64,000 bases of DNA, from assembly GCA_036785375.1 (NCBI GenBank), contig JAWMAR010000506.1, positions 992,001 to 1,056,000 on the forward strand, given 5' to 3'. The notes under the pieces are model-generated. The model saw only the letters and a list, made by a program, of their open reading frames with translations, did not search any database and was not told the origin of the DNA. Shown piece after piece: positions 5,444 through 55,900 of this stretch (its first letter is position 1; every line of letters begins with the position of its first letter). Origin of the DNA: Leucoraja ocellata (Eukaryota). The position numbers were made by a program, and so were the translations under genes.

Positions 5444-5636
5444 GTCAGTATTTTTTTTACCAAAAACATTTAACTAGTGGTGTAACGATAGTTTAGCTTG
5501 TTCGTCTTTTGAATCTGATATGAGATAGTTATCGAACTTACATCAAAATGCTTTGAAGAAAGTTTGGACAATTTTACTGCAACCTTCACTTCAATTAGAT
5601 TACTTTTTTCTCTCTCTCTCTCGTTTCCCTGTTAAG

Positions 5637-6701
5637 GACCGGACCCCAAATTCTTCCCCCGAATCGGCCAAGCAGTCCCCGCTGGCTCTCCTGGCCGCAA
5701 CATGTAACCGGATCGGACACGCTGGCTCAGCGCACACTGATTTCTTCCAGATCCCATACGACCCGTGCCTGAGTTCTCCGTCTCGCATCTTCCACCCCTG
5801 GAGTAACGAACTCCCTTCCAACCACGGCGGGATGCCATCCCACTCCAGCCTGGCACTCACCCCTCCGAAAGTTCACCAGCTACCGCCTCATCTCCAGGCG
5901 CCCTATGGGTCGCACGAACTTCCCCTCACTCCACCCGCGGAGCCGTCTTACCCGTTCGAGCTATCTCGCGTCAAGATGCTGCCATCGTCCATGCAGACCT
6001 TGGCTTCCAGCTGCCAACCCACCTATGTGCCCGCCGTCACCTATGGCACATCGAATCCTATCAGCTCAGCTATGTCAGGGTTCGTCCCGACTGGATCCAC
6101 CTTACTTTCACACCAGCACCGGCACATGTCTCCAAACCAAGTGGAGGACATCCCATGGTGGAGCATTCAGCAGAACAGTAGCGTCAGTCACTCCTCGTCC
6201 ATCCCTCCTCATCGCTTCCCTCTGCAACGTTCCTTGGTTTTGGGCCATTCAGACTTCGCCCAGTATCAGACTCAGATCGCTGCTCTCCTTCACACCAAGT
6301 CTCCCCTGGCGACTGCCCGGAGGTGCAGGCGGTGCCGCTGCCCAAACTGCCAGTCGTCGAGTAACAACGACGAACCAGGCAAGAAGAAGCAGCACATCTG
6401 CCACATCCCGGGATGCGGGAAGGTTTACGGCAAGACGTCTCACCTGAAGGCTCACCTGCGGTGGCACACTGGCGAGAGGCCCTTCGTCTGCAACTGGTTG
6501 TTCTGTGGCAAAAGTTTCACTCGGTCGGACGAGCTGCAGAGACACCTGAGGACTCACACTGGGGAGAAACGCTTTGCATGCCCGGAATGTGGCAAAAGGT
6601 TTATGCGAAGCGACCATCTGGCCAAGCACGTTAAAACACATCAAAACAAAAAAACTAAACTGGGAGTCGAAAATGTGAAACGGGAAGACGGAAGTATGTG
6701 A
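5637..6701 (+). CDS. sp5: Transcription factor Sp5, coding exon 2 (spliced protein 371 aa)
   Basis: Polypyrimidine tract + AG (5635-5636) then DRTP; Sp box [10 protein letters not shown], buttonhead box [11 protein letters not shown], three Sp-type C2H2 fingers, TGA at 6699-6701. sp5 versus sp5-like paralog not resolvable without phylogeny. Confidence 0.93.
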
Positions 6702-9025: not shown

Positions 9026-11224
9026 AAATTATTTTATTGATCTTTCACGGAATTGGCTTTAGATAAATGAACAGGCTTTCCTCTTGGAAGGAGAATGTGA
9101 TAGTTAGATTGTGTCTTTAGACGACTTTATGACTGTTTAGTTTGCTCAATCAAAGCAGAGGAAGTTGTAAATCTGGTTCCTCAGTTAACATTTCAATGTT
9201 AGTGGCAGAGCAGTGGACGAGCGCAGCCTACACAGGATGCGTCCAGCTATCATCGCCAGCAACATCCAATCTCCCGAACTAGCGTCCTTCAGCGAATTTT
9301 ATACGTTTCCAGATCAGTTACTGACTTTGTGAACAGGTTTAGCTGTCTAATAGTCAGATATACAATCTATACATGAAAGCCAATGAGAGCACAAGATGAT
9401 TTGTAAACCAATTTGAGCTCTTTGATCAAATCCAGCCTTGACTGGGTGCTCCGGATAATTATTTGATAGGTTTTCCTTGGTGATTTCCTTCAAACGTTGT
9501 ATGAAGTCTTTCACGCGGCAAATGTGAGCGCAGATCCTAAAACTTCACTAATCTCAGTTGATAAAACCTTCAAGGTTTGCCCTTGTTCACCATCTCGAGA
9601 TCTCTCGCGGCAGCGCTTTCTAATGCAAATGAAAGTTTACATCAAAAAGGTATCCTTAAATGTCAAAGCTTTTGAAGTTTTTTTGGTGTTGACGATTTCA
9701 ACGATCGAGCTGATATATATATTCTGAAGAAGATTCTCACCGCGAAACGTCACCTATTCCTTTTCTCCAAAGATGCTGCCTGACCCAGCTTTGTGTGTGT
9801 GTATCTTCCGTATAAACCAGCATTTTTTTTTAAATGGAAGAAAGGCCAACGAGTGCGAATGAAAATGTAAATAGCAGCTTGGGCGTTAATACCTCTCGCC
9901 TAATACTGCATGGCAATTGTTAATTTCAGCGCAATATCTGCACGGTACAGGGCACGGTACTTTTCATCCACTCATCTCTTCAGGTTGGGCGTAGTATCAT
10001 AAGCATTGGGATCCATTGCCAATGGCAAGTAACTTAACATGCGTGGTCCAAAAGTGAACACCAAATATACTATCCTTTAACTAATTAAATTAAAATAACT
10101 GGATCCTGCGTTCTGAATTGTACAAAACGTCAAATGCCCATTGTTTGAACATTCATTTTCATCTTAGACAGTTCTTTGGGATCAAGGATGAATTATTTCC
10201 ACAGAATCTGTAGCTGAGGTGGCAGCTGAAGCGAACGTAAGCTTGCTCACTCTCCCATCGCCAAGACAAGTGATGACTGACCGGAGGTTGTCGGTGGCTC
10301 CTCCACTTTCCACACGTGTGCTGCTTATGCAGGGCCTGGAGGTTATAAAAAAACACCTGGGGTGCTTTGAGTACAGTACTAGTTGACACGAGATTCATGG
10401 GAATTAGTGGTAAGATGCATTTCTTCAACACCCTTGAAAGAGACCCTTGAAAGAGGCACAATATTCTGGGTTCTGTCAAGAGCAGATTGTAAAGTGAATA
10501 GAGAAAAGTGCATTGTGACAATGATACATTAATTTAGTTGCAATGTTGAGGTTGCTTCACACCAGATACTTCAGTGACCCTCTTTTCATCACAGATGAAG
10601 TTTTCACTTAATTACATTTGTGACTATATTGAAGAGTACTCAGTAAATCCTAAACCAACACAGGTGAATAATATGCAGACAGAAGGAACTGCAGATGCTG
10701 GTTTACAAAAAATAGACACAGTGTGCTGGAGTAACTCAGCAGGTCAGGCATAATCTCTGGAAAATCTGAAGAGGCAATGTTTCGGATTAGGTCCCTTCCT
10801 TAGACTGATTGAACTAGGTGGGAGAAAGCTGGGAGAGGTGGGGGCAGGCAAAAGCCTGACAAATGATGGTTGGACAATAACCAAGTGTCATTAACCAATA
10901 GCTTATTTTATGCTATTTCCTGGCATTTGAAAATAGGATCATAGAGTTTTATAGCAAAATGTTTCAAGTTGTGTATTATTAAATAGTCTAAAGTTGTTCA
11001 ACATATTAACAAAATATTAAGTTGTTTCAAATTCATATTATCACTATGGTCTATTGTGGTATCATCTCCCTCTGGGTTACACAATCCCTCTGGGCCAGGC
11101 ACAATTTGCTTCAGTTTTGTGGGTTGTGAGTTAGATGAACAACCTATTGCAGGACTTGCATATTTTGCTGCTTGGACTAGGTGATGCTTAATTGTGTGAG
11201 CAGATGTTTTGTTTGTGATAAAAA

Positions 11225-11450
11225 GTAACTGCAGATGCTGGTTGATACCAAAGATAGACACAAAACGCTGGAGTAACTCAGCGGGTCAGGCAGCATTTCT
11301 GGAGAAAGTGATAAGTGCTGTCTCGTGTCAGGACTCTTCTTCAGACTGATGCTTTGATCTGTCTGAAGAAGGGTTCTGACCCAAAACATCATCTATTCAT
11401 GGTCTCCAGAGATGCTGCCTGACCCACAGAGTTACGCCAGCATTTTGCAT
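11225..11450. mobile_element. Fold-back (inverted dimer) Penelope-derived short repeat
   Basis: Unit in minus orientation followed by the same unit in plus orientation, joined at CTTCAGAC...GTCTGAAG. Confidence 0.7.
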
Positions 11451-14735: not shown

Positions 14736-15842
14736 GATGGCGCAGGAAGGGGCGGACCATCCCGCAGAGTGACAGGAGAAGACACTAATCTGCGCGGCGC
14801 AGTCTGACAGGAGAGGTGATCGATCTGCTCATGCGCGGTTTTTACGATTTTTAAACCTCGCTAACTTTTACAACATACTACTGATCAGAACAAAACGGTG
14901 CACTCGCAGCACAGGAGAACGGTGAGTGAGCTGATGAAAAATTGTAGCGTTATCGCCAGGTAAGGGTAGGCAAGGTAGGCACTGCATAACCTGACTAAAA
15001 CTATAAATTTATAATTATTAAATATAAATAGTAAAGGCACGGGAGATTTAAGATAGTTCCTTTCACTGCGTGTTGGGAGTCTGGCCAGGGGTAATGTTGC
15101 GGGGGGAGTGGGGGGGTGCAAGGAGCGTTGAGAAGGAGGGGGTCGGGGATCATGGCAGCAACCAGCTCAAGAGCGGGTCAGCGGGCGATGGATAACAGGA
15201 CAGCGGGCGGTGGAGCTTACTCCATGTGTCAGTGCGAGTAACCTCATTTGGTACCTTGTTCGCGCTGACACATGGAGTAAGCTCCACCGCCCGCTGTCCT
15301 GTTATCCATCGCCCGCTGACCCGCTCTTGAGCTGGTTGCTGCCATGATCCCCGACCCCCTCCTTCTCAACACTCCTGCCGACACCGCAACTTTACCCCTT
15401 AGCCAGACTCCCCACACGCTGTGAAAGGAACTCTCCCCCCCAATTGGTCCCTTGAACTAGTATTGTCATTCAATAAGATCAGACCTGATTCAACTTGTCC
15501 CGGTGTGCTTCCATTTTCCAAACCATCTCTCCACCTGCAGGCACCCTCCACCCCCACCCAATCAGTAATTCAGAAAGCAGGAGATTTGGAAGCCTTGTGC
15601 AAATTGAGTTGTTACTTTCTTTATTTTTATTTTTTATTTTTACGGAATGGAGAACAATCTGTGCATGTGCGGTTTAAGATTTTTAAAAGCTGCCTGACTG
15701 CCTACCCTGAGTAATTACTCACAGCACGTGCCTGGTTATCGCGTACCATTTTTGCGCAAATAGAACAACCGCGCAAACTGGAAGGGCACAAGATCAGAGT
15801 TTTAATTATGCAATATAGAATATAGATAGAAGATAGATAGAT
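14736..15842 (+). mobile_element. Non-autonomous element with long internal palindrome (possibly Helentron/DINE-like)
   Basis: Interrupts Penelope; internal direct repeat (~14820 vs ~15657), fold-back 15055-15432, ends in TATAGATAG repeats; classification is inference. Confidence 0.45.
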
Positions 15843-17128
15843 GTCTGGTCATCTGCACCTCCAAACCCCACCAGGAGGGTCTTCAAGCCCTCCATTTCTT
15901 CCTCGACCGCAGAACCAGCCAATTTCCGTCTACCAATACACTCCTCCGCCCAGCAGAGCTGGTCCTTAACATCAACAAATTCTCCTTCCACTCTTCCCAG
16001 TTCCTCCAAATCCAAGGCGTAGCTATGGGCACACATATGGGCCCTAGGTATGCCTGCCTCTTTGTAGGGTACGTCGAACAATCCTTGTTCCATGCATACG
16101 CTGGCCCTATCCCCAAACTCCACCTCCGCTACATTGATGACTGTATTGGTGCTACCTCCGGCACCCATGCAGAACTCACTGACTTCATCAACTTCACAAC
16201 TGCACTCAAATTCACTTGGACCATTTCCGACATCTCCCTACCATTTCTGGATCTCACCGTCTCCATCACAGGAAACAGGCCGACATCTATTACAGACCTA
16301 TTGACTCCCATAGCTATCTTGACTACACTTCTTCCCACCCTGCTTCCTGTAAAGACTCTATCCCCTACTCACAATTCCTCCGTCTGCAAGGCATCTGCGC
16401 CCTGGATGAGGTGTTCCATACCAGGTCATCGGAGATGTCCTCATTCTTTACGAAACGGGGGGGTTCTCCTCTTCCATTATAGATGAGGCTCTCACTAGGG
16501 TCTCCTCGATATCCCGATGCTCCACTCTTACTCCCCCTCCCCCCATTCGTAACAAGGACAAAGTCTCCATTGTCCTCACCTTCCACCCCATCAGCCATCG
16601 CATGCGGCATATAATCGTCCAACATTTTCGCCACCTCCAAGATCCCACCACTGGCCACATCTTCCCATGTCCACCCCTTTCTGATTTCCGCAGCGATCGT
16701 TCCCTCCAAAACTCCCTGGTCAACTCGTCCCTTCCCTCCCCCTCCCCAGGTACTTTCCCCTGCAACCGCAGGAGATGCAACACCTGTTCCTTTACCTTCC
16801 CCTTCGACTCCATCCAAGGACCCAAACAGTCTTTCCAGGTGTGGCAGAGGTGCGCCTCCTCCAACTTCATCTACTGTTCCAGGTGTCAACTTGCCCACAT
16901 CGGCGAGACCAAGCGCAGGCTCGACGATCATTTCACTGAACACTTCCGTTCACTCTGTCTTAACCTACCTGATCTCCTGGTGGCTCAGCACTTCAACTCC
17001 CCCTCCCCCTCCCATTCCCAATCTGACCTTTCTGTCCTGGGCCTCCTCCATTGTCAGGGTAAGGCCCAGCGCAAATTGGAGGAACAGCACCTCATATTTC
17101 GCTTGGGTAGTTTACACCCCAGCAGTAT
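15843..17128 (+). mobile_element. Penelope-like element, RT core + GIY-YIG endonuclease (frameshifted)
   Basis: QIQGVAMGTHMGPRYACLF, RYIDD, LPFLD, CNRRRCNTC, IYCSRC...HIGETKRRL..HF.EH. Confidence 0.92.
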
Positions 17129-20100
17129 AGAAACATAGAAACATAGAAAATAGGTGCAGGAGTAAGCCATTCGGCCCTTCGAGCCTGCACCACCATTCAA
17201 TATGATCATGGCTGATCATCCAACTCAGTATCCTGTACCTGCCTTCTCTCCATACCCCCTGATCCCTTTAGCCACAAGGGCCACATCTAACTCCCTCTTA
17301 AATATAGCCAATGAACTGGCCTCAACTACCTTCTGTGGCAGAGAGTTCCAGAGATTCAGAGAAAAAAAAATTCCCATCTCGGTCCTAAAGGATTTCCCCT
17401 CTATTCTTAAGCTGTGACCCCTTGTCCTGGACTTCCCCAACATCGGGAACAATCTTCCTGCATCTAGCCTGTCCAACCCCTTAAGAATTTTGTAAGTTTC
17501 TATAAGATCCCCCCTCAATCTCCTAAATTCTAGCAAGAACAAGCCAAGTCTATCTAGTCTTTCTTCATATGAAAGTCCTGACACCCCAGGAACCAGTCTG
17601 GTGAACCTTCTCTGTACTCCCTCTATGGTGAGAATGTCTTTCTTCAGATTAGGAGACCAAAACTGTATGCAATACTCCAGGTGTGGTCTCAACAAGACCC
17701 TGTACAACTGCAGTAGAACCTCCCTACTCCTATACTCAAATCCTTTTGCTATGAATGCTAACATACCATTCGCTTTCTTCACTGCCTGCTGCACCTGCAT
17801 GCCCACTTTCATAAACTGGTGTACCATGACATTCAGGTCTCATTGCATCTCCCCTTTTCCTAATCGGCCACCATTCAGATAATAGTCTACTTTCCTGTTT
17901 TTGCCACCAAAGTGGATAACCTCACATTTATCCACACTATACTGCATCTGCCATGCAATTGCCCACTCACCCAGTCTATCCAAGTCACCTTACAGCCTCC
18001 TAGCATCCTCCTCACAGCTAACACTACCCCCCAGCTTAGTGTCATCCACAAACTTGGAGATGTTGCATTCAATTCCCTCGTCCAAATCATTAATATATAT
18101 TGTAAATAGCTGGGGTCCCAGCACTGAGCCTTGTGGTACCCCACTAGTCACTGCCTGCCATTCTGAAAAGGACCCGTTTACTCCTACTCTTTGCTTCCTG
18201 TTTGCCAGCCAGTTCTCTATCCACATCAATACTGAACCCCCAATACCGTGTGCTTTAAGTTTGTATACTAATCTCTTATATGGGACCATGTCGAAAGCCT
18301 TCCGAAAGTCCAGATATAACACATCCACTGGTTTTCCCCTATCCAATCTACTAGTTACATCCTCGAAAAATTCTATAAGATTCGTCAGACATGATTACCT
18401 TTCGTAAATCCATGCTGACTTTGTCCAATGATTTCACCACTTTTCAAATGTGCTGCTATCCCATCTTTAATAACTGACTCTAGCAGTTTCCCTACTACCG
18501 ATGTTAGACTAACTGGTCTGTAATTCCCTGTTTTCTCTCTCCATCCCTTTTTAAAAAGTGGGGTTACATTAGCTACCCTCCAATCCTCAGGAACTACTCC
18601 CGAATCTAAAGAGTTTTGAAAAATTATCACTAATGGATCCACTCTTTCTGGAGCTACTTCCTTAAGTACTCTGGGATGCAGTCTATCTGGCCCTGGAGAT
18701 TTATCGGCCTTTAATCCATTCAATTTACCTAACACCACTTCCCGGCTAACCTGGATTTCACTCAGTTCCTCCATCTCCTTTGAACCGCGGTCCCCTGCTA
18801 TTTCCGGCAGATTATTTATGTCTTCCTTAGTGAAGACGGAACCAAAGTAGTTATTCAATTGGTCCGCCATGTCCTTGTTCTCCATGATAAATTCACCTGT
18901 TTCTGACTGCAAGGGACCTACATTTGTTTTAATTAATCTCTTTCTCTTCACATATCTATAAAAACTTTTGCAGTCAATTTTAATGTTCCATGCCAGTTTT
19001 CTTTCATAATCTATTTTCCCTTTCCTAATTATGCCCTTTGTCCTCCTCTGCTGGTCTCTGAATTTCTCCCAGTCCTCTGGTCGGCTGCTTTTTCTGGCTA
19101 ATTTGTACCCTTTATCTTTTGCTTTGATACTATCCCTGATTTCCCTTGTTATTCACGGATGCAGTACCTTCCCCGATTTATTATTTTGCCAAACTGGGAT
19201 GAACAATTTCTGGAATTCATCCATGCAGTCTTTAAATGCCTTCCATTGCATATCCACCATCAACCCTTTAAGAATTAATCGCCAGTCAATCTTGGCCAAT
19301 TTACGTCTCACACCCTCAAAGTTACCTTTCTTTAAGTTCAGAACCATTGTTTCTGAATGAACCATGTCACTCTCCATCCTAATGAAGAACTCAACCATAT
19401 TATGGTCAGACTTGCCCATGCACAACAAGACTGCTAACTAACCCTGCTCTCTCGTTGGTTCCTCTACATGTTGGTTTACAAAATCCCACATACATTCCAA
19501 GAAATCCTCTTCCTCAGCACCCCTGCCAATTTGATACACCCAATCTTTATGTAGATTGAAGTCACCCATTGTAACTGTTTTACCTTTGTTGCACTCATTT
19601 CTAATTTCCTGTTTGATGCCATCCCCAACTTCACTACTACTGTTAGGTGGCCTGTACACAACACCCACTAGCGTTTTCTACCCCTTAGTGTTTCGCAGCT
19701 CTCCCCATATCGATTCCACATCCTCCAAGCTAATGTCCTTCCTTTCCATTGTGTTAATCTCCTCTCTAACCAGCAATGCTACCCCACCTCCTTTTCCTTT
19801 CTGTCTATCCCTCCTGAATATTGAATATCCCTGGATGTTAAGCTCCCACCCTTGGTCACCCTGGAGCCATGTCTCTGTGATCCCAACTATATCATAATCA
19901 TTAATAGCTATCTGCACATTCAACTCATCTACCTTATTACGAATGCTCCTTGCATTGAGACACAAAGCATTCAGGCTTGTTTTTACAACACTCTTACCCC
20001 TTATACAATTATGTTGAAAAGTGGCCCTTTTTGATTTTTGCCCTGGATTTGTCTTCCTGCCACTTTTACTTTTCACCTTGCTATCTATTGCTTTTACCCC

Positions 20101-21160
20101 CATTTTACACCCCTCTGTCTCTCTGCTCACACATTTAAGAACCCCACCACCTCTTATTCTCTGTTTATTATTGTTTTCTTCTTTCCCCCCTACATGTTGG
20201 GTCTGAGTGCTTCCCTTCTCTGCCTCCTGCCTCACACACTGTCTACTAGCTTTCTCTATTTGAGTCCCTCCCCCCAACCGTTCTAGTTTAAAGTCTCTGC
20301 AGTAGCCTTTGCAAATCTCCCCGCCAGGATATTGGTCCCCCTCGGGTTCAAGTGCAACCCATCCTTTTTGTACAGGTCGCACCTTCCACAAAAGAGGTCC
20401 CAATGAGCCAGGAACTTGAATCCCTGCCTTCTGCACCAGTCCTTCAGCCACGCATTTATCCTCCACCTCGCTCCATTCCTACTCTCACTGTCGCGTGGTA
20501 CAGGCAGTAATCCTGAGATTGTTACCTTTGCGGTCCTTCTTTTTAACTCTCCTCCTAACTCCCTAAATTTTCCTTTCAGGACCTCTTCTCTTTTTCTACC
20601 TATGTCATTGGTACCTATATGTACCACAGCCTTGGGCTCCTCTCCCTGCCATTTCAGGATATCGTGGACACGTTCAGACACATCCCAGACCCTGGCACCA
20701 GGGAGGCAAACTACCATCCGGGTCTCCCGACTGCGTCCACAGAATCACCTGCCTGACCCCCTAACTATAGAGTCCCCTATTACTAATGCCCTCCTCTTCT
20801 TTTCCTTACCCTTCTGAGCAACAGGACCGGTCTCTGTATCGGAGGCCCAGCCGCTGTTGTTACCCCCAGGTAGGCTGTCCCCCCCAACAGTACTCAAACA
20901 GGAATACTTATTGTCAGGATATACAGCCAAGGGGTACTCTCTAGTCCCTGCCTGTGCCCCTCCTAACCGTAACCCACTTGCCTGCATCCTGTGGTATTGG
21001 AGTGACCACCTCTCTGTAACTCCTCTCAATGACTTCCTCGCTCTCCCTGACCTGACGGAGGTCATCGGGCTGCTGCTCCACGTTCCTAAATACGGTCCCT
21101 TAGGAGCCCCATCTCGACGCACCTGGCGCACATGTGGACGTCTGGAAGGCTATCAGATTC
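17129..21160 (-). mobile_element. Long CR1-clade LINE (ORF1 SGNH esterase, ORF2 APE+RT) nested in Penelope
   Basis: ORF1 ALVIGDSIVRG/VCLPGA/HIGTND/DGLHL; ORF2 LNARSI, ITETW, VVYRPP, GDFN, KSPGPD, QGSVLGP, KFVDD; short-repeat 3' tail (AGAAACAT on +) at ~17129; frameshifts and internal deletions. Confidence 0.93.
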
Positions 21161-21182
21161 CTTGACTTCTCTAACTTCAGAT

Positions 21183-21345
21183 GAACATTGACTTCTCTAA
21201 CTTCAGATAGCCCTTGCTTTCTCTCTCCATCCCCTTCCCCATCCCAGTTCTCCCACTAGTCTTACTGTCTCCAACTACATTCTATCTTTGTCCCGCCCCC
21301 TCCCTTGACATCAGTCTGAAGAAGGGTCTCGACCCGAAATGTTTT
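21183..21345 (+). mobile_element. Penelope-like element 3' end with hammerhead-like core
   Basis: Continues ...CAGCAGTAT|GAACATTGACTTCTC from 17128; ends CAGTCTGAAGAAGGGTCTCGACCCGAAA. Confidence 0.8.
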
Positions 21346-21383
21346 CACGTTTTTTCAACTCACACCAGTTGTTCAAGTAAAAA

Positions 21384-23790: not shown

Positions 23791-25854
23791 CACTCCAGCA
23801 CTTTTCTGCACTTTGTTACGTTGTATGTTCTATTAAAAATGGTACATAGGTTTCAAACATTTTGGCTACTATTAAGGTGATACAAGAAACTGCAAATGCT
23901 TGTTTATACGAAAAATTCGTAACTCAGGGGGTCAGGCAGCATCTCTGGAGAATATGGATAGGTGACGTTTTGGATCAGGACTTCTTCAGACTGAAGCACT
24001 TTGTGTCCTTTTTTTGGCTTCTATCAAACTTAGTATTTAAATATTTGAGCTGAACCTAAATTATTCTTATTGTGTTCACTATTAATATTGTTTTTGCCCT
24101 TACTGGTTGAAACTCTGGTTTTCTTGCGCTGCTGATAAAATAAGGAGTGAGGATGGAAGGACACACACCAGTCACTGCTCTGATTTCACGGTATGATTTA
24201 CCCTTGTGCTCTGATATGCAGGTGATGATCATTGATAGATCGAATTGAATCTGTTGTAACCATTGTCACTTTAATCCAATACAACATGTTTAAAGAAGAA
24301 TTCTGCTGATTTTGGTCATTTTAATCTGATATCTGAAGAACCCATTCAATTTTGACATTGGAAACTAGTGAGAATTAATGGAACTGCTCCCTATGCAGAG
24401 GGGTTGATGGAGTTGTAGCTCCCTTGAGTTGCAGTTGGAGATGTGATATGAATTGATGCCTGTCAACTGTGCTGAAAATGCAGAAAAAAAATCCAGAAAA
24501 AATACACACTTTTGCGACTTACTGCTGCCAACCTCTATTCTAGGCTCATCACAACTTGTCGATGTGAGTCAACATCCTCAACAATGACTGTAGCTAACCA
24601 TTGCTGTACAAAACACTGAGCATGCATTAAGTTGTGCTATATTTTTGTTCTGAACAATTATAGATGTTTGTGAAATAAATATAAAATTTGAAAGGAGGAA
24701 AGGAGTTTAAAAAAAAAATGTGCAAATGGATAAAGGTTGCATATGCAAAGAACTGCAGATGCTTGTTTTCAAAGAAAAGTGCTGGAGTAACAGCTGGTCT
24801 AGCAACATCTATGGAGACCATGGATGGATTCCAGTACAGTCAGTCTGAAGAAGGTAAATGTTGCCCAACCATGTTCATCAGAAATTCTGTCTAACCCGCT
24901 GAGTTACTCCAGCACTTTGTGTTTTTTATCATTGCCTTAATTATGATTACTTTTCATTAGCACCTTTCAATGTCCAAATTTTAATGTAAATTAACTTATT
25001 TATCTCTAAAGTGTTCTGTAACCAGACGGAGCGGGAGGATGTTTTCTCCCATTCTTCCTCAGGTGGAATTTCTTTTTTTCAATAAACTCTGCTAACTGTT
25101 CAGACAAAATATTTGCAAATGATCTCAGTTTTCTAAAGCTTACTAGCCAGATATGTTAGATTATTGTTGGGTTGGATTTATATTCTATAAACCATTCAGT
25201 ATAATTCGACTTGGGGTACACTGCCAGCTTCACTGGGTATTCTGTTCAGCTCAACGTGACTTTGTTTTCTTAAAAAAGAAAGGACACAAAGTGCTGGACA
25301 CAAAGAGCGGGTCAGGCAGCATCTTTGGAGAACATGGATAGGTGACATTTAAGGTCAGGACCCTTCTTCAGACTGACATGAAACGTCACCTCCATGTTTG
25401 CCAGAGATGCTGCCTGACCTGAGTTACTCCAGTACTTTTTGTTCCTTTTTGTAAACCAGCATCTGCAGTCGCTTGTTTTTGCATGCATCCTCTGTTCAGT
25501 TGTCAGTTAATTTACATATGCACCAGTTGTATCTTTCATTACTCAGGACTGTTTAATTCTCCATAATGCCATGCCTCAGCTCATTTGCACATTCCAAAAT
25601 AATCACTGATACAAATTCCACATCAAAAGAGAAAAATGGATAGGACAGGTTTCGAGGGATGTGGGCCAAATGCAGACAGGAGGGTCTGGTGTAATTGGGA
25701 CATGTTGGTCGGTCTGGGCAAGTTGGGCCGAAGGGCATGTTTCCACGCTCTATGACACTATGACACTGTTGGACACAAAATGACAGCTATATTGCTAATT
25801 CTTGTAAAGTCCTCTTGCAAAATGTAGAACTGACGTTCATAGGTAACAACACGA

Positions 25855-28180: not shown

Positions 28181-28659
28181 GTTGGAGCAAATAACTATAA
28201 GTTTGGACAAAGATATAGATTTTAGAAGACTTCATAAAGAAGGAAAGGGAATTATAAGATGTTCAGGAAGCCACACCTTAGGGTCTGGCTTGACAGATGA
28301 TTCAATGATACTTTATTGTCACATGTACCTGGGTACAGTGAAATGCTTTGTTTTGCAAACAACCCGGTAAAATCATATAATAGATAAAATCATATGGTCG
28401 GTGAAAATCACATGAAAGGCAGCCACCGATTGTAGATCTATTAAATTTGAGGATGAGCAAGAGATTAACATTAGAATAGTGTTGTAGTTGCCCTCTGAAC
28501 CTGCAGTAAACTTAATTTTGTAACAAAGTAGGAACCTTCAGTGACGCTTCGGAGGATCTCGACCCGAAACATCACCCATTCCTTCACTCCAGAAATGCTG
28601 CCTGTTCCGCTGAGTTCTTCGGCAGTTCCTTCCTACACAAAGTAGGAACCATCGTGGGC

Positions 28660-40050: not shown

Positions 40051-41559
40051 CAAGTCCAGTGCATTATCAAAGATATTTCTTAAATATCTTCACATAACTT
40101 CTCATTATGGTGCTTTGTACTTTTATGTATTGTTTCATCGTGACCACCCGTTGCTTACAAATCAGTTGTTGGCTTTCTTTTTTATCATGACTAAATAAAA
40201 CATGTGAAATTCATTTTATATTTAGAGTGAAAGTTCTGATACTATACTTACAAAATGGTTGCAATATTTCTGTCTTTGGAATGGGACCGTTTAAGAGGGT
40301 ACACCAAGATTACAATCACAATTGACAGTTTGAAATATAGTTATATTTGTGGTTTATAAAAAAATTGATGTACAAAAAATTGATGTTTTTGTTGAGTGAG
40401 TTGGCAGTTTGAGTTTGGTTGAAGCAGAGTAACAATTTGTTTAAATTACATGTTTGAATTGTTGGACTGATAATCTGAATTAGTGATTTTAAAAAAAATC
40501 AACAGATTTGTGTGTGTGGACATCGGCTTCTTTTACTTTTTTAGGTTTTACTGTAATTTAAGTGATCGCCGTCAGCAGGGCTCGAAATTAGCGGTTGCCC
40601 GGGTGCCATTGACCACTCAAAGTGCAGCCGGGCAACCTAAATGCCGACTCATTTTGCCCGGCTTGGCAATCAAATACTGGTTTATACCGACAGTCACAAA
40701 AAACTGGAGTAACTCCGCGGGTCAGCCAGCATCTCTGGAGAATAGGAACGTGACGTTTCGTGTCAGCGGTGGCGGCGGCTGTATTCATCTAGTATCTTTG
40801 ATTGTGGGGCAAAGACACTAGGTGCGTGGTGACGAAGGGTTGGAGCGAAACACGGGCCCGAATAGCGGCAACAGCGGCGGCAACAGCAGTTCCATCGCCT
40901 CCTCCTCCCGCACCTCGCCCGGCGGAAGGAACCTCCCTCTCTCCCTCCTCCCGGCCTCGGCTTGCGAGAGGGGTTGTGAAAGCGCAGTTGGCGGATTTGC
41001 AAGCAGCGGCCGCTATCGCCCTGATAACGGCCACTGCTTGCAAATCCGCCAACGGCGCTTTCACAACCCCTCCCGGATGCCGAGGCCGGGAGGAGGGAGA
41101 GAGGGAGGGAGAGGGCTCCTTCCGCCGTCTGAAGCAGCTGCACGACTGATCCTTTAGCTATAGGATCTTTGAGCTGCTCGGCTCCGCACCTTCCAGTCGG
41201 CTGGCGGACGAGGGAAGGCGGTGGCTTTGAGGCGGCGGCACTTTGGCGTTGGACAGGGACGGCCAAGGCAGCGATGTCCGAGGAGCGCTGACCTTCCTTC
41301 CTCCCCACCTCCTCTGCACCTTCCATCCTCTCTCTCTCTCTCTCTTTTTTTTTTTCCTGGGACCCCTCCTCTCCATCCCGCACTGATCCCCATTCCCTCC
41401 TCCTCTATTCAGTCCTCACTGACATCCCCTGTGCTCCCCTCCCCATCTACCCCTCCCCCCCCCCAATCTATTCATCACCGTACCCAGCTCGCATTAATTC
41501 TCCTGCCACCCCCCCCCCCCCGATCCATCCTGCACTTCTCCCCCCATTCATACTGCACT

Positions 41560-41935
41560 AAACCACCCATTCATCCTGTACTGACCCACCCTCCATATAC
41601 CCCGCACCAATCCCCCTCCCCCCCCATCCATCCTGTACTGATCTCCCATCCATCCTGTACTGATCTCCCATTCATCTTTTACTGATCCCTCATGCATCCT
41701 GTACTGATCCCCTCATGCATCCTGTACTGATCCCCTCATTCATCCCGTACTGATCCCCCATTCATCCTATACTGATCTCCTCATTCATCCTGTAGTGATC
41801 CCCCATTCATCCTGCACAGACCCTCCGATCCACACAGTCCTGACCCCCCCCCCCCCAATTCATCCTGTACTGATCCCCCCCATTCATCCTGTGATGACCT
41901 CCTCCCCCCATCCATCCTGTACTGACCCCCCCCCC
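41560..41935. repeat. Minisatellite (~21-23 bp unit CATCCTGTACTGATCCCC..ATT)
   Basis: More than 10 imperfect tandem copies. Confidence 0.9.
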
Positions 41936-42606
41936 TCATTCAAGAAGAATGGGACGAACAGTTTGAAGATGGGTCTCGACCCGAAACTTTGTATATACAC
42001 CACTGACATCTCCCCTCACAATTTTACATACTCCAACCAACACGTACTAATTCACCTGCCTCAATCCATCCATTCCGCACCGATTGCCTTCTCAAACCCC
42101 CCATCGCCATCTATCCACCCCGCACTGATTCACACACCTCCTGACCCTATTGTGCTTCATGGTCTTCAGAGCGAACATTGACTATGTTTGATAACGGAAT
42201 GCAATCAAATGTGTTTTAAAGCCCAATGTTATTAATTGTTTTGACCTTTAAACATATTACCAAAAGAACATTTGCTGCAGTTATGTCCTTTGGTCATCTC
42301 TTGTCAGTTAGTGTAATGTTTAACCTGTTAGATTGGTATGGTCGGTTTTAACAGCTATTATCATAAAATGCCTTTAGAAATTTCCTTGCAACGTTTATAT
42401 TTTGTTATGGATAAATTATGTGGGAAGCGAGAGTGTTTCTGTGTCAATATCAATAACGACCCATGCTATGGCCATGTCATGGTAATTTTCGGTCCTTCAC
42501 AGAAAACATGCTTGCATCAATTTCAATATGTAAAAAGAGTTGAGATATTGTATTATAATTTTGCTGCATGTCATTGTGCTATATATAATGTCTTGATTGG
42601 TGAATA

Positions 42607-43040
42607 TAGAAACATAGAAAAATAGGTGCAGGAGTAGGCCATTTGGCCCTTTCGAGCCTGCACCGTCATTCAATATGATCATGGCTGATCATCCAACTCA
42701 GTATCCTGTACCTGCCTTCTCTCCATACCCCCTGATCCCTTAAGCCACAAGGGCCACATCTAACTCTCTCTTAAATATAGCCAATGAACTGGCTTCAACT
42801 ATCTTCTGTGGCAGAGAATTCCAGAGATTCACCACTCTCTGTGTGAAAAATGTTTTTCTCATCTCGGTCCTAAAAGATTTGCCCCTTATCCTTAAACTGT
42901 GACCCCTTGTTCTGGACTTCCCCAACATCGGGAACAATCTTCCTGCATCTAGCCTGTCCAACCCCTTAAAATTTTTGTAAGTTTCTATAAGATCCCCCCC
43001 TCAATCTTCTAAATTCTAGCGAGTACAAGCCGAGTCTAGC
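42607..43040 (-). mobile_element. Young CR1 3' end inside the hAT element
   Basis: Highly similar to ~17130-17550 and 30029-30345. Confidence 0.88.
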
Positions 43041-43087
43041 CAATATGTTTAGTTTGACTTTATTTGAAACAGAAATAATAAGTGAAT

Positions 43088-43305
43088 GTAGACAAAAGTG
43101 CTGGAGGAACTCAGCAGATGTGGCAGCATCGATGGAGCGAAGGAAATGGGCAACGTTTCGGGCCGAAACCCTTCTTCAGACTGATGGGTTTTGGCCTGAA
43201 ACATTGCCTATTTCCTTCGCTCCATAGATGCTGCTGCACCTGCTGAGTTTCTCCAGCACTTTTGTCTACCTTCGATTTTCCAGCATCTGCAGGTCCTTCT
43301 TGAAC
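43088..43305. mobile_element. Fold-back Penelope-derived unit with 14-bp TSD and hammerhead-like core
   Basis: Arms 43088-43171 / 43186-43269; ATAATA(A/T)GTGAATG at 43075-43088 and 43306-43319. Confidence 0.8.
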
Positions 43306-45219
43306 ATAATATGTGAATGCTTCATTGAGCATAATTCCAACTGGTAACTACGCACTTCGTCCAAGCACATTATCGCACGTGTCATGCAAACCGTCTTAAA
43401 TGACCACCTAAACTGTCATTTGGCAACCTAAAAAGCTGTCAAGGTTGCCCGGCTGGCAACAGGGAGAAAAGGTTAAGTGAGAGCCCTGGTCAGGATATCC
43501 TGCCTTCATATCCAGCTTTCTGTTTTTCCATTTCTAAGGCCATGCATCATAGTCATTAAGCTATTAGTAGTTGTATAAACACAAGCAGATAATATGGTAG
43601 AACAGTTTGGCATCATTTGTGGCAAGAGAATAATCTTATGTTATTTCAGAATTCATTTTATAATTGTAGTCTGCTTCCTGTACTTGATCTTTTTCTGGAT
43701 TTTGCTGCAAAGGATGATTGGGTTGGACTATTTAACATCGACAATTGTGTATCGTTTTACTTTGCTAAATTATGATTACCCTCTCTTATTCCTCTAAACC
43801 AATGAACAAGAAAAATAACTGTGTGTTATGTCGATGCTCCAGCATTCTGGAAATTACTGTGCTGTGACATTTATGATTGTCATGGCTTACTTCAAAAACA
43901 ATTCATACTTGGTCTAGATTAATGTGATGTTTGAAGCAGACAACATTGGGTTGATCGAAGGTTAATATACATCGAAGATTTAAAAACAAACAAATTTAGA
44001 ACTGCATTCAATTTTTGGGGGGGCGAAGAACATCTATTGGATATTATTATAAAGAACATATTATTATAAAGAACATATTGGAGGTTCTGGAATGAGTAAA
44101 CATTGGAGCAGGGAGTTTCAAGGTCTTTGAACAAGTATTAAAATCTGTGCATTATAAGGCTAAAACTATTACAGGGCAGATGAGATTGAAAATACTTGAA
44201 ACATTTCTACTCTACTTTATGATACAAATTGGTCTTCTATACCCCAATTTAAAAGTCAAATTAAGCACCATCTTTCCCCACCCACCATAGTTAACTTTAT
44301 TGTGCCATCCCATCTGTACTGATGTGAAAGTTTCATTCAAATAATTAAACTTATAACTAGTAAAGACAATTAAGGCAGATTTTTGTTCAGCTGGAATGGG
44401 ACAGATAGTGTGTTGAAATATCAGTAAGGGGGTTCATATCAGGTTCTCTATGTTACATGTTTATGCCAAATTATTTTTTAATTGCTGGATTTTCTGAAGC
44501 ATCAGCATTAGTTTGTAGGTACACAAAAGTACTGGAGAAACTCAGCGGGTGCAGCAGCTTCTATGGAGCGAAGGAAATAGGCAATGTTTCGGGCCAAAAC
44601 CCTTCTTCAGACGGGTGGGGGTGGCAGGGAGAAGAAAGGAAAAAGGAGGAGGAGGAGCCCGAGGGCTGAGGGAGAGATAGAAAGGGGAGGAGACAGCAAG
44701 GGCTAACAAAATTGGTGGGCATGAACATTGAATTGGACCCCTCAGCAAAGAGTAAACTAGGAAGGGGAAAATCTTCGGTATCCGAGGGAGAGGTTGACAG
44801 CGTGACGTGGCATCGAGATCAAGTGTTCGTGAATTGTGTGCTAGTGCTTTAAATCATTTTGTAAATTGTAAAAAATAGCTTTGCGTATTCTCCAGATTTT
44901 GTAAATATTCTCTGTATGTAACTAAATTTTAGAGTAATTAAAAGTTAAGATTTAGATCATGTTAAGTCCGCGGACCATCATTGTGTTGCTGCTTGTGCTG
45001 GTGTTTACAGATTTAAAGCTTGAAGCGAGAGTGTGTTCAAGTTAGATATTCGTAGTGCTTAATTTAGATATCCATATTTGTTTAAGATTGTTTTGTGAGA
45101 ATCTGAATCGGGGTTGTACTCCTTCGATCACTGCGTTGGGGGAGGAGTCATCCTGCTGATTGATTGTGCCACGAGGAGGATTGGTTAAAGTGGGGTTTAC
45201 TGTATGCTTCTCAGTTACA

Positions 45220-52795: not shown

Positions 52796-53569
52796 AGGAC
52801 CCACAATCATGTTTATATCAACGGGACAATGGTGGAGAAAGTCAAAAACTTCAAATTCCTGGGTGTGCATATTTCCGAAGATCTTTCCTGGACCCAGCAC
52901 ACTAATGCAATTATAAATAAAGCACACCAACGCCTCTACGTGGATATGAGCGACAAAAATTGAATCTTTTTTCAATTACATTGTGCTGATTATTAAAAGA
53001 ACTTTTAAATCACATAATTGTATTTGTAATGTTATGTTGATTGTTTAAAAGGTCAGTACCGATTTACTTGTAAGATATTATTTTACTTATGAGCGGGATG
53101 AATGAAGAAACAAAAAAGCTGACAACTTTCTTTTACTCAAATTTATTTGAATGCAGTGCCTCAGACAAATAGATGGGAGGAGGTATAAAGAATAGTATAG
53201 ATGGAGTAAGAGAAAATGAAGGAATGAGCTGGATTACTTGTAAGAATTTATGAAGCAATGTTGGAGGGCTCGAAGAAAGCTTTGTTCAGTCAGTACCTTA
53301 ACCAATCCAATGAATCTTAATCATCAGGAATTGTGGTCACTGATAAGTGGCTTGTCAGCGCTGAGGTCTCCATAAGTGGCACCTTTGAAGAAACTCTTGT
53401 TTCTTTTTTCTGCACTCTGATTTGAAAAAAATCCATCAGGATATGAAAGAAATAAGAAGGCTGTGGAATTCTTAGATTCTATTAAAATTTGGATGACACA
53501 GAGATGATGACCCTTGTGCGAGAATAACATGCAATTTCAGGAAGCTTGCCGTAAAATAAAGAGGAAGAA

Positions 53570-54805: not shown

Positions 54806-55900
54806 TGCTGATAGAAATATCCACCAGTTGTAAATCTTAAAGAGTTTGAATAAATTCTAACTGTTATAAGTAAGTAACATTTACTGTACCTGGTGCATGT
54901 GACAATAAAGAAACCATTGAACCATTGAATTTTATTCCTTATGTTTAAATTCATAGCAGCTCTATTACAATCTCATGCCCTTCCCTCGGTCATGGTGCCA
55001 AGCTAGGTTTCCTCAGGTTTTATGGGTGTAAATGTGTATGCCCATCATAGTATTTACCTGCTTTTTGATTTGGCAAAGGTATATTTATATTATTATAACT
55101 GTCCATTGGTTAAGAATCAGGGCCAAGTTAAAACCAAACCTTGTTTTTTGTGTAGGTAGGAGCTGCAGATGCTGGTTTATACCAAAGATAGACACAAAGA
55201 ACTGGAGTAACTCAGCGACTCAGGCAGCATCTCTGGAGAAAAGGAACAGGTGGCGACCCGAAACATCACCTGTTCCTCTTCTCCAGAGATGCTGCCTGCC
55301 CCATTGAATTGCTCCAGAGCTTTGTGTCCCTTTTTCTTATTCAGTTTCCCGGTCTCTCGGATGGTTTCTGTAGTTGCTTCATCTTCCATTCTGCCCTCTG
55401 TGCCTCTGAGGCCTCTCTCTCCTCCCTTGATCAAACATCTGCTCAATTTCTAATCACTGAAATTCATTCCTTGCTGACGCTGTCAGTGATTTTCTCCCAT
55501 CTAACACACTGTCTCACTGAGTGGGATTTTAGCCATGTGTCTACTTTGGTGAGTAAGAGATTTAAGTGATGCAAGGACAACAGGATAATATAAAGAACTA
55601 AACAAATGTAATTTTGCCAGGCAGTTTGCAGCTTTAATATGTGGTAGCTGATAGTGACTCATGATGATGATATCTGCTGTTGGTCCATTGCATGAAGAAC
55701 TTTGGCAGAGTCAATGGGCTGAAATCTCATAATGATTCTAAGAGGCACTCACTCTCCCAAGGTTAAATGCTGCAGCATTGGTTAGTGAAGGGAGACCAAA
55801 GAATGTAACTATGAATGAGGCCGATCTGCGGATTCAGAAAGGCAGTATTGGAGAAGCATCAGGCCTTGCACTTGTCCAGTAGGCACAAGATTATTACAGT

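Follow-up and report, generated by a model that had tools for sequence, protein, structure and literature searches.

Several described systems come close to the sequence analysed here. Inverted-pLTR insertions of EN+ Penelope-like elements (PLEs), known from Pen2a_Av, combine a 5'-truncated inverted copy with a direct copy, carry a 30-40-nt tail at one end, have palindromic joints, and are bounded as a whole unit by a target duplication (PMC3846280; scheme in PMC8557442). How the inverted pLTRs and the one-sided tail arise is described as an open question (PMC8557442), and self-priming fold-back has been proposed (PMC3846280). The pLTRs of PLEs contain minimal hammerheads, which share two catalytic boxes, an extra base, a G10.1-C11.1 pair and a palindrome, and which are widely dispersed as single truncated copies and as close pairs on opposite strands (PMC4209133). 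In PAc, an Anolis element of the Poseidon and not the Neptune type, the tail is bounded by two internal start sites, nicking and extension take place on both strands, and the RNA that serves as template is uncut; cleavage depends on protein and is dispensable for insertion (PMC11167929). Metazoan non-LTR retrozymes are small (150-400 nt), non-coding, tied to PLE pLTRs and equipped with a type I hammerhead in each unit of a head-to-tail repeat, and they form circular RNA (PMC7229834; bioRxiv 10.64898/2026.07.22.740005). Finally, hAT5 transposons have short inverted ends and are named for their 5-bp duplications; elements of the CMCT group also have CA..TG ends, with 2-5-bp duplications (PMC12730594).

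Anatomy of a head-to-head Penelope stub

The window analysed here is a stretch of 64,000 nt from Leucoraja ocellata (contig JAWMAR010000506.1, 992,001-1,056,000; assembly of 3.44 Gb). A sequence-only reading of it had proposed a retrozyme-like family of short Penelope-derived units with a hammerhead core. The core is present as described, with its range one base shorter: the minus strand of 43149-43183 consists of CAGU, CUGAAGA, A, GGGU, UUCG, GCCC, GAAA, CG, UU and GCC, in this order. The motif comprises a 2-bp helix I, the CUGAAGA box, an extra A, a 4-bp stem II with a UUCG loop, the GAAA box, an ACGU palindrome and a GUU triplet, and its cut site is predicted between 43152 and 43151. Helix I, already flagged as weak, measures 2 bp and is followed by a 2x2 mismatch. 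The extra A had been listed as a caveat; it is instead a described trait of PLE minimal hammerheads (PMC4209133), all of whose traits occur here: CUGANGA and GAAA boxes, NUH triplet, extra base 9/10.1, G10.1-C11.1 pair and palindrome 15.2-16.2. A hammerhead search, which had been suggested as a check, does not recover the motif. The Rfam scan of the window returned no hammerhead match at E<=10, only hairpin-driven miRNA matches below the cut-off.

The core was also said to end a Penelope element and to recur in more than 20 short copies. A related core of another subfamily, with the stem GGGUCUCGACCC, does lie at 21316-21343, and a profile search finds 29 module matches in the window, including every position that had been named. 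Both catalytic boxes are kept in only 6 of these 29 modules. Of these six, the 43149-43183 copy is by inspection alone in having stem II, the G10.1-C11.1 pair and the ACGU palindrome as well. The four target duplications reported earlier all hold, at 28523/28637 (14/14), 31313/31476 (16/16), 43075/43306 (13/14) and 54500/54638 (8/8, with 5 of the 8 letters overlapping the element's own 5' end). Penelope origin, a minimal type I hammerhead motif and very high copy number are borne out.

What had gone unseen is that 43088-43305 is a two-armed palindrome inside a larger mobile element. It consists of two head-to-head terminal modules of a Neptune-type Penelope, one with a 36-nt tail and one without (Table 1). 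The stub is 218 nt long and non-coding, with no overlapping ORF of 120 aa, and as a hairpin it has a fold energy of -142.6/-158.3 kcal/mol. Its arms are identical at 75 of 84 positions and overlap by 3 nt at 43186-43188; in the module numbering, which counts from the C of CUGA, the untailed arm begins at about -9. The tail corresponds to the interval of ~36 nt between two 3' end classes, seen both in ORF-linked copies and in a 1-Mb sample of the genome. A 5'-truncated inverted copy adjoining a direct copy, a tail on one arm and a duplication around the whole unit are all present.

Table 1. Coordinates of the stub, its host transposon and related Penelope sequence in the window
Feature	Position	Strand	Basis
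Head-to-head Penelope stub, two modules, 3' ends outward	43088..43305	.	self-match, fold, alignment of 16 copies
Untailed arm, only intact hammerhead motif	43088..43188	-	from ~9 nt before core to short 3' end
Tailed arm, begins at stem II, without CUGAAGA box	43186..43305	+	sequence, alignment
Penelope tail, 36 nt between two fixed 3' ends	43270..43305	+	two 3' end classes
Minimal type I hammerhead motif	43150..43181	-	sequence; features as in PMC4209133
Left target duplication of stub, 13-14 nt	43075..43088	+	13/14 match
Right target duplication of stub	43306..43319	+	alignment with left copy
Host non-coding DNA transposon, hAT5-like; 8-bp inverted ends 40576-40583 and 43481-43488	40576..43488	.	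both ends found in other copies
Left host target duplication GTCAG, 5 bp	40571..40575	+	
Right host target duplication GTCAG, 5 bp	43489..43493	+	
3' piece of LINE, later insertion into the window's host copy, AATAT flanks	42608..43041	-	missing from other host copies except C35 duplicate
Single Penelope stub within host, older and decayed; shared with empty host copy L189	40668..40764	-	
Broken Penelope ORF, sister subfamily (RT part, zinc-finger linker, endonuclease)	15830..17127	+	related ORFs match domains
3' end of sister-subfamily Penelope with hammerhead core 21316-21343, ends abruptly after core	21172..21346	+	

The window's own Penelope copy (15830-17127 and 21172-21346) is split by a LINE. 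This LINE, which we take to be CR1-like, is near-full (17128-21160, minus strand), with esterase, endonuclease and RT domain matches; a 21-nt direct duplication lies within 21161-21200. Among ORFs of relatives, RVT_1 matches 4 of 4 (3 over the cut-off) and GIY-YIG matches 2 of 4, below the cut-off. The parent ORF (L105) has a CX4CX2C linker motif, a type that marks Neptune and Nematis (PMC8557442). The parent is therefore probably an EN+ PLE of Neptune type, judging from this motif, which Nematis has as well; an earlier assignment to the Poseidon clade was dropped on the same ground. The module stands at the 3' ends of ORF-bearing copies and at the front of three long copies (L222, L231, L232), and in full elements the front module is followed by the first in-frame ATG, after the tail. 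The long insertions L102 and L103 have the same head-to-head layout as the stub. In L232, the first ATG, ~35 nt past the tail, overlaps a splice-donor-like AAG/GTATG, and an acceptor-like pyrimidine tract with CAG lies ahead of the module; a matching joint is absent among the listed RNA joints.

Other features of the window include a near-perfect GC-rich palindrome of ~270 nt (15113-15387) unrelated to the module, a U6-like sequence (53465-53558) below the Rfam cut-off that is probably a pseudogene, and an open frame with C2H2 zinc fingers (5529-6701).

In 108 copies anchored outside the core, the non-CpG positions of the boxes are 88-97% conserved. Differences between subfamilies preserve the pairs of stem II and helix I one-sidedly (U-A to U-G), with no two-sided change, so that selection on the fold is not demonstrated. 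The predicted cost of adopting the hammerhead fold is 7 kcal/mol in a lone arm and 32.5 kcal/mol in the full hairpin. In a model of folding energy alone, an ACGU/ACGU dimer reaches -13.3 kcal/mol against a dimer minimum of -28.1 kcal/mol. Cleavage of PLE hammerheads as dimers was reportedly described in a 2017 paper. We read the hammerhead as a real feature of the parent that is probably inert in the 43088-43305 copy.

The host DNA transposon and its probable passenger

A genome search with the stub gave 1545 candidates, of which 40 were scored; all 40 are full-length, at 94-100% identity. Flanks were compared in 30, a set that includes the window itself and a near-identical duplicate on C35, and every one of these 30 best matches has the same host flank and the same target word, 28 of them on both sides (in L008 and L020 the host flank is interrupted on one side). 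In most of the 30 loci the common sequence stops sharply at 43488, and a matching inverted end lies at 40576. The target word of the stub's duplication is single-copy in empty host elements. By exact matching, which gives lower bounds, the genome holds at least 900 empty sites and at least 107 filled junctions, against 0 for the controls; these counts may be inflated because the C35 region is a duplicate or second haplotype. That region (~10.69-10.72 Mb; L002, L031) is a second copy of the window region, with 96% identity over 3.2 kb and an identical Penelope protein piece.

Among 20 stretches, 18 host copies have both ends; 8 of these are flanked by perfect 5-bp duplications (two of them with the same flanks), 4 match at 4/5, 2 look like 6 bp and 4 are without a duplication, with an 8/8 duplication in none. 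Additional 5-bp duplications occur around host copies outside this set. No hAT transposase partner with the host's ends was found in the 30 loci examined, of 150 scored from 2657 hAT candidates, and we therefore infer the hAT5 label. The long ORFs of the longest host copy look like an inserted retroelement, with no transposase seen. One filled host copy (L342:2422-6795) contains inserted ORFs resembling RT/RNase H and a tyrosine recombinase, presumably DIRS-like. A C-rich minisatellite (41500-41950 in the window) varies in length among host copies. Nine host copies were chosen only by likeness to the left end of the window copy, and 6 of them are filled, so the filled hosts look like one sub-lineage.

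These common flanks bear directly on how the unit moves. A discrete mobile palindrome, which was our first reading of the genome matches, is ruled out by them. A MITE, that is, a hairpin whose own inverted arms let a transposase move it, would fit the long inverted arms, the lack of an ORF and the near-identity of the copies (94-98%). Against this, the arms are asymmetric, the copies lie at the same host site, and the long, variable duplications are retroelement-like; the common flanks refute a MITE for 43088-43305, and we give it practically no credence. The stub is likely a passenger of the host DNA transposon, which probably carried it to more than 100 sites after a single landing. With a probability of about 0.8, then, we read the unit as a tailed and an untailed Neptune-type module that likely arose in one two-ended insertion into a hAT5-like transposon and were likely taken to those other sites by it.

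Stub formation across the genome

Stubs of this kind abound in the skate genome. A profile search of a 1-Mb sample (100 stretches, each of 10 kb, taken from large contigs at round positions) finds 469 modules and, in the reversed control, 0; should the sample be representative, the genome total would be of the order of a million modules. Of these modules, 182 form 91 head-to-head pairs (within 45 nt), compared with 12 direct and 8 tail-to-tail close neighbours, and no head-to-tail arrays occur in the sample. The 91 pairs show 85 joint types, the joint positions being profile-alignment ends that are fuzzy in old copies; the perfect palindrome is one recurring type (6/91). Both ends could be classified in 67 of the 91 pairs, the other 24 being dropped as decayed, and 51 of the 67 (76%) combine a tailed with an untailed arm, against 33.5 expected (p=1e-5), the remaining 16 being tail+tail or short+short. 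Because of the variety of joints and this excess of mixed pairs, the hairpins are likely built anew at each landing. A duplication of at least 11 nt flanks 24 of the 67 pairs and 1 of 67 controls (43 pairs are without one); among solo copies, 16 of 61 are bounded by 12-19-nt duplications, compared with 0 of 61 controls. Together with the two fixed Penelope 3' ends, the 12-19-nt duplications support insertion of the units by the Penelope machinery. Older head-to-head stubs lie elsewhere in the window (11220-11446, 24747-24923, 25270-25475, 55152-55344). Many short partial tandems (L281-L304) join a front piece ending at about +200 to +270 straight to a second module, their ends bunching near +215 and +260, possibly because a template jump occurs there or a short RNA ends there.

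The two arms of a pair are closely related: at subfamily-diagnostic sites they agree in 83% of cases, versus 54% between pairs. Of the 51 mixed pairs, 18 have the longer 5' reach in the untailed arm and 11 in the tailed arm; the other 22 are about even. Since either arm may reach further, neither is simply a copy of the other. This matters for fold-back synthesis, in which one cDNA or antisense template would snap back at TCAG-N-CTGA or at stem II and copy itself into the second arm. Such a process would explain the untailed arm, the origin of both arms from one subfamily and the clustering of joints at the two palindromic spots. In the 18 of 51 mixed pairs, as in L102 and in 43088-43305, however, the untailed arm has 5' sequence that is missing from the tailed arm, which in turn has the tail. 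Fold-back accounts for the palindromic joints but leaves such arms, neither of which contains the other, unexplained; as a general origin of the stubs we find it improbable.

In the two-ended insertion that we favour, the Penelope protein would nick both strands 12-19 nt apart, and each nick would prime a cDNA, the two cDNAs beginning at different internal start sites. Both cDNAs would halt no further than the 5' edge of the module and would then be joined by microhomology. The hammerhead would be inherited from the parent, uncut in the copied RNA and, by prediction, blocked in the hairpin. One such product would have landed in the DNA transposon and been spread by that host lineage, the LINE piece entering the window copy later. 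Start-site choice in the Anolis work is alike on both strands and alone would give 50% mixed pairs, not 76% (PMC11167929).

In the 1-Mb sample, 5' ends do not accumulate where the ribozyme would cut (0.57% per nt at +26..+30 vs 0.63% at +29..+44); the density is 2.4% per nt at +2..+11 and 0.2-0.8% elsewhere in +12..+80. Among 168 core-bearing copies, 116 end within ~6 nt upstream of the core (61 into unique flank, 55 into the inverted arm) and 52 run on, a heuristic split in which a few rows are misclassed either way. In the whole genome, one young core is preceded by exactly 1, 2 and 3 native letters in 2604, 5782 and 3509 copies. Once chance matches are allowed for, the main stop lies at G-2, with ~7400 copies; this figure is too high, since one subfamily variant natively has another letter at -3. 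In most of the 16 solo copies the duplication directly adjoins the 5' end. Of 30 loci that extend beyond the tail, the core is kept in 9 that are independent; 6 of these begin no more than 9 nt before it and 3 are partial tandems. The sequence-only reading had named, as the outcome that would speak against it, copies that are all random 5' truncations of full Penelope insertions without independent subfamily structure. No such structure was found, so this part goes against the reading; the 5' ends, though, are not random and peak just before the core.

The sharp stop likely marks the start of the parent RNA, at about even odds against an RT stall. In the latter case, RT would stall at the splice-acceptor-like site before the core (pyrimidine tract and CAG), with the same anatomy otherwise. 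In Drosophila virilis, helix I is where the Penelope intron ends (PMC4209133), and the transcription start lies 46 nt upstream of this intron (PMC2377424); both fit a stall. The spread of the stop over -1 to -5 and the 52 of 168 core-bearing copies that run on upstream fit it too, as does the weak cap signal: an extra G before GT occurs in 38 of 100 copies (33 C, 29 T; chi-square p=0.10), and before AGT there is no signal (26 G/100). A cap G had been suggested by 9 G among 14 copies in a small sample, which fell to 26 among 100 listed young copies. An origin of the 5' G from spliced host exons is disfavoured, the upstream letters being like random flank and the duplications of most solo copies reaching right up to the 5' end. 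Against a stall, long copies have their front ends at this same stop, no common first exon precedes the truncated copies, and the native TCAGTC presumably fits the initiator consensus. A stall is a plausible explanation that we nonetheless lean against; it concerns only the sub-step of the 5' stop, and the passenger reading is unaffected. In raw RNA runs (poly(A) or single-cell, blind to cut ends), 4 searched with the full-element front and 2 with the stub, thousands of reads map on both strands and 91-98% continue into unlike sequence, with no site where many molecules begin or end. Loose RNA ends do peak at L232:2413, where a change private to the L232 copy confounds the signal.

Taken together, the ~300,000 head-to-head stubs extrapolated for the genome may record Penelope integration itself: a protein dimer would prime both nicked strands, using the distal start site on one and the proximal on the other, on an RNA whose 5' end would lie 2-3 bases before the hammerhead core, with the ribozyme at the very start of the mRNA and uncut in the copied RNA. 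We offer this extended account tentatively and would not quite bet on it.

A retrozyme-like unit would instead be a non-autonomous family whose RNA is freed by hammerhead cleavage, circularised and re-inserted by Penelope RT. The motif intact in 43088-43305, the density of ~470 modules per Mb and the solo copies with their own duplications would fit it, and vertebrate retrozymes derive from pLTRs (bioRxiv 10.64898/2026.07.22.740005). The nearest thing to a retrozyme dimer that we saw is in L293 and L294, where two same-strand cores lie 220-270 nt apart. Yet each unit has one intact core, head-to-tail arrays are lacking in the sample, the ends ignore the cut site, the joints vary from pair to pair, and the fold is costly both in the hairpin and in the lone arm. 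The one multi-copy version examined, 43088-43305, owes its copies to the host DNA transposon. The proposal of a retrozyme-like family spreading as a unit does not survive these observations well, and we consider it very improbable.

Comparison with known systems

The lessons for annotation are twofold: a multi-copy "ribozyme element" can owe its copies to another transposon that carries it, and many minimal hammerheads do not make a retrozyme family. What deserves specialist attention is the stub statistics, 43088-43305 itself being an ordinary leftover. The existing in vitro system (PMC11167929) could serve to test both the 76% share of tailed+untailed pairs and the sharp 5' stop. In the literature searched, with most subscription journals and Repbase Reports outside it, we did not find a two-ended insertion model for PLEs stated.

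Compared with retrozymes, the stub is likewise small and non-coding and has a type I hammerhead with a PLE pLTR tie. It is head-to-head instead of head-to-tail, has one intact motif instead of a hammerhead per unit, and has ends unrelated to the cut; its helix I is 2 bp, compared with 6 bp in the canonical type I hammerhead of retrozymes. None of the four retrozyme features tested (head-to-tail repeats, a canonical hammerhead, ends set by the cut, spread as its own unit) was found. The pLTR hammerheads described in PMC4209133 are closer. In the skate motif, stem II is 4-5 bp and helix I is 2 bp, compared with 7-8 and 4-5 bp in the Schistosoma families, and helix I is also 2 bp in D. virilis; the cut triplet of this skate subfamily would be GUU, unlike the hammerheads described there. 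The supplements of that paper and of bioRxiv 10.64898/2026.07.22.740005, which sampled one cartilaginous fish, may already list the motif.

Like PAc, the skate parent would have the module at the RNA front and two start sites bounding the tail, with uncut RNA as the proposed template. It differs in its CX4CX2C linker and in the first in-frame ATG, which follows the tail and is not at stem II (PMC11167929). The host resembles hAT5 transposons in its short inverted ends and 5-bp duplication, and differs in that no transposase was seen in it (PMC12730594). The closest match in layout is the Pen2a_Av type of insertion. In contrast to these, 43088-43305 is without any ORF, has arms of only ~100-120 nt and is nested in a DNA transposon, and such pairs number ~90 per Mb (PMC3846280; PMC8557442). 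The layout of the stub is thus already published for EN+ PLE insertions, and the addition made here is the passenger status of 43088-43305.
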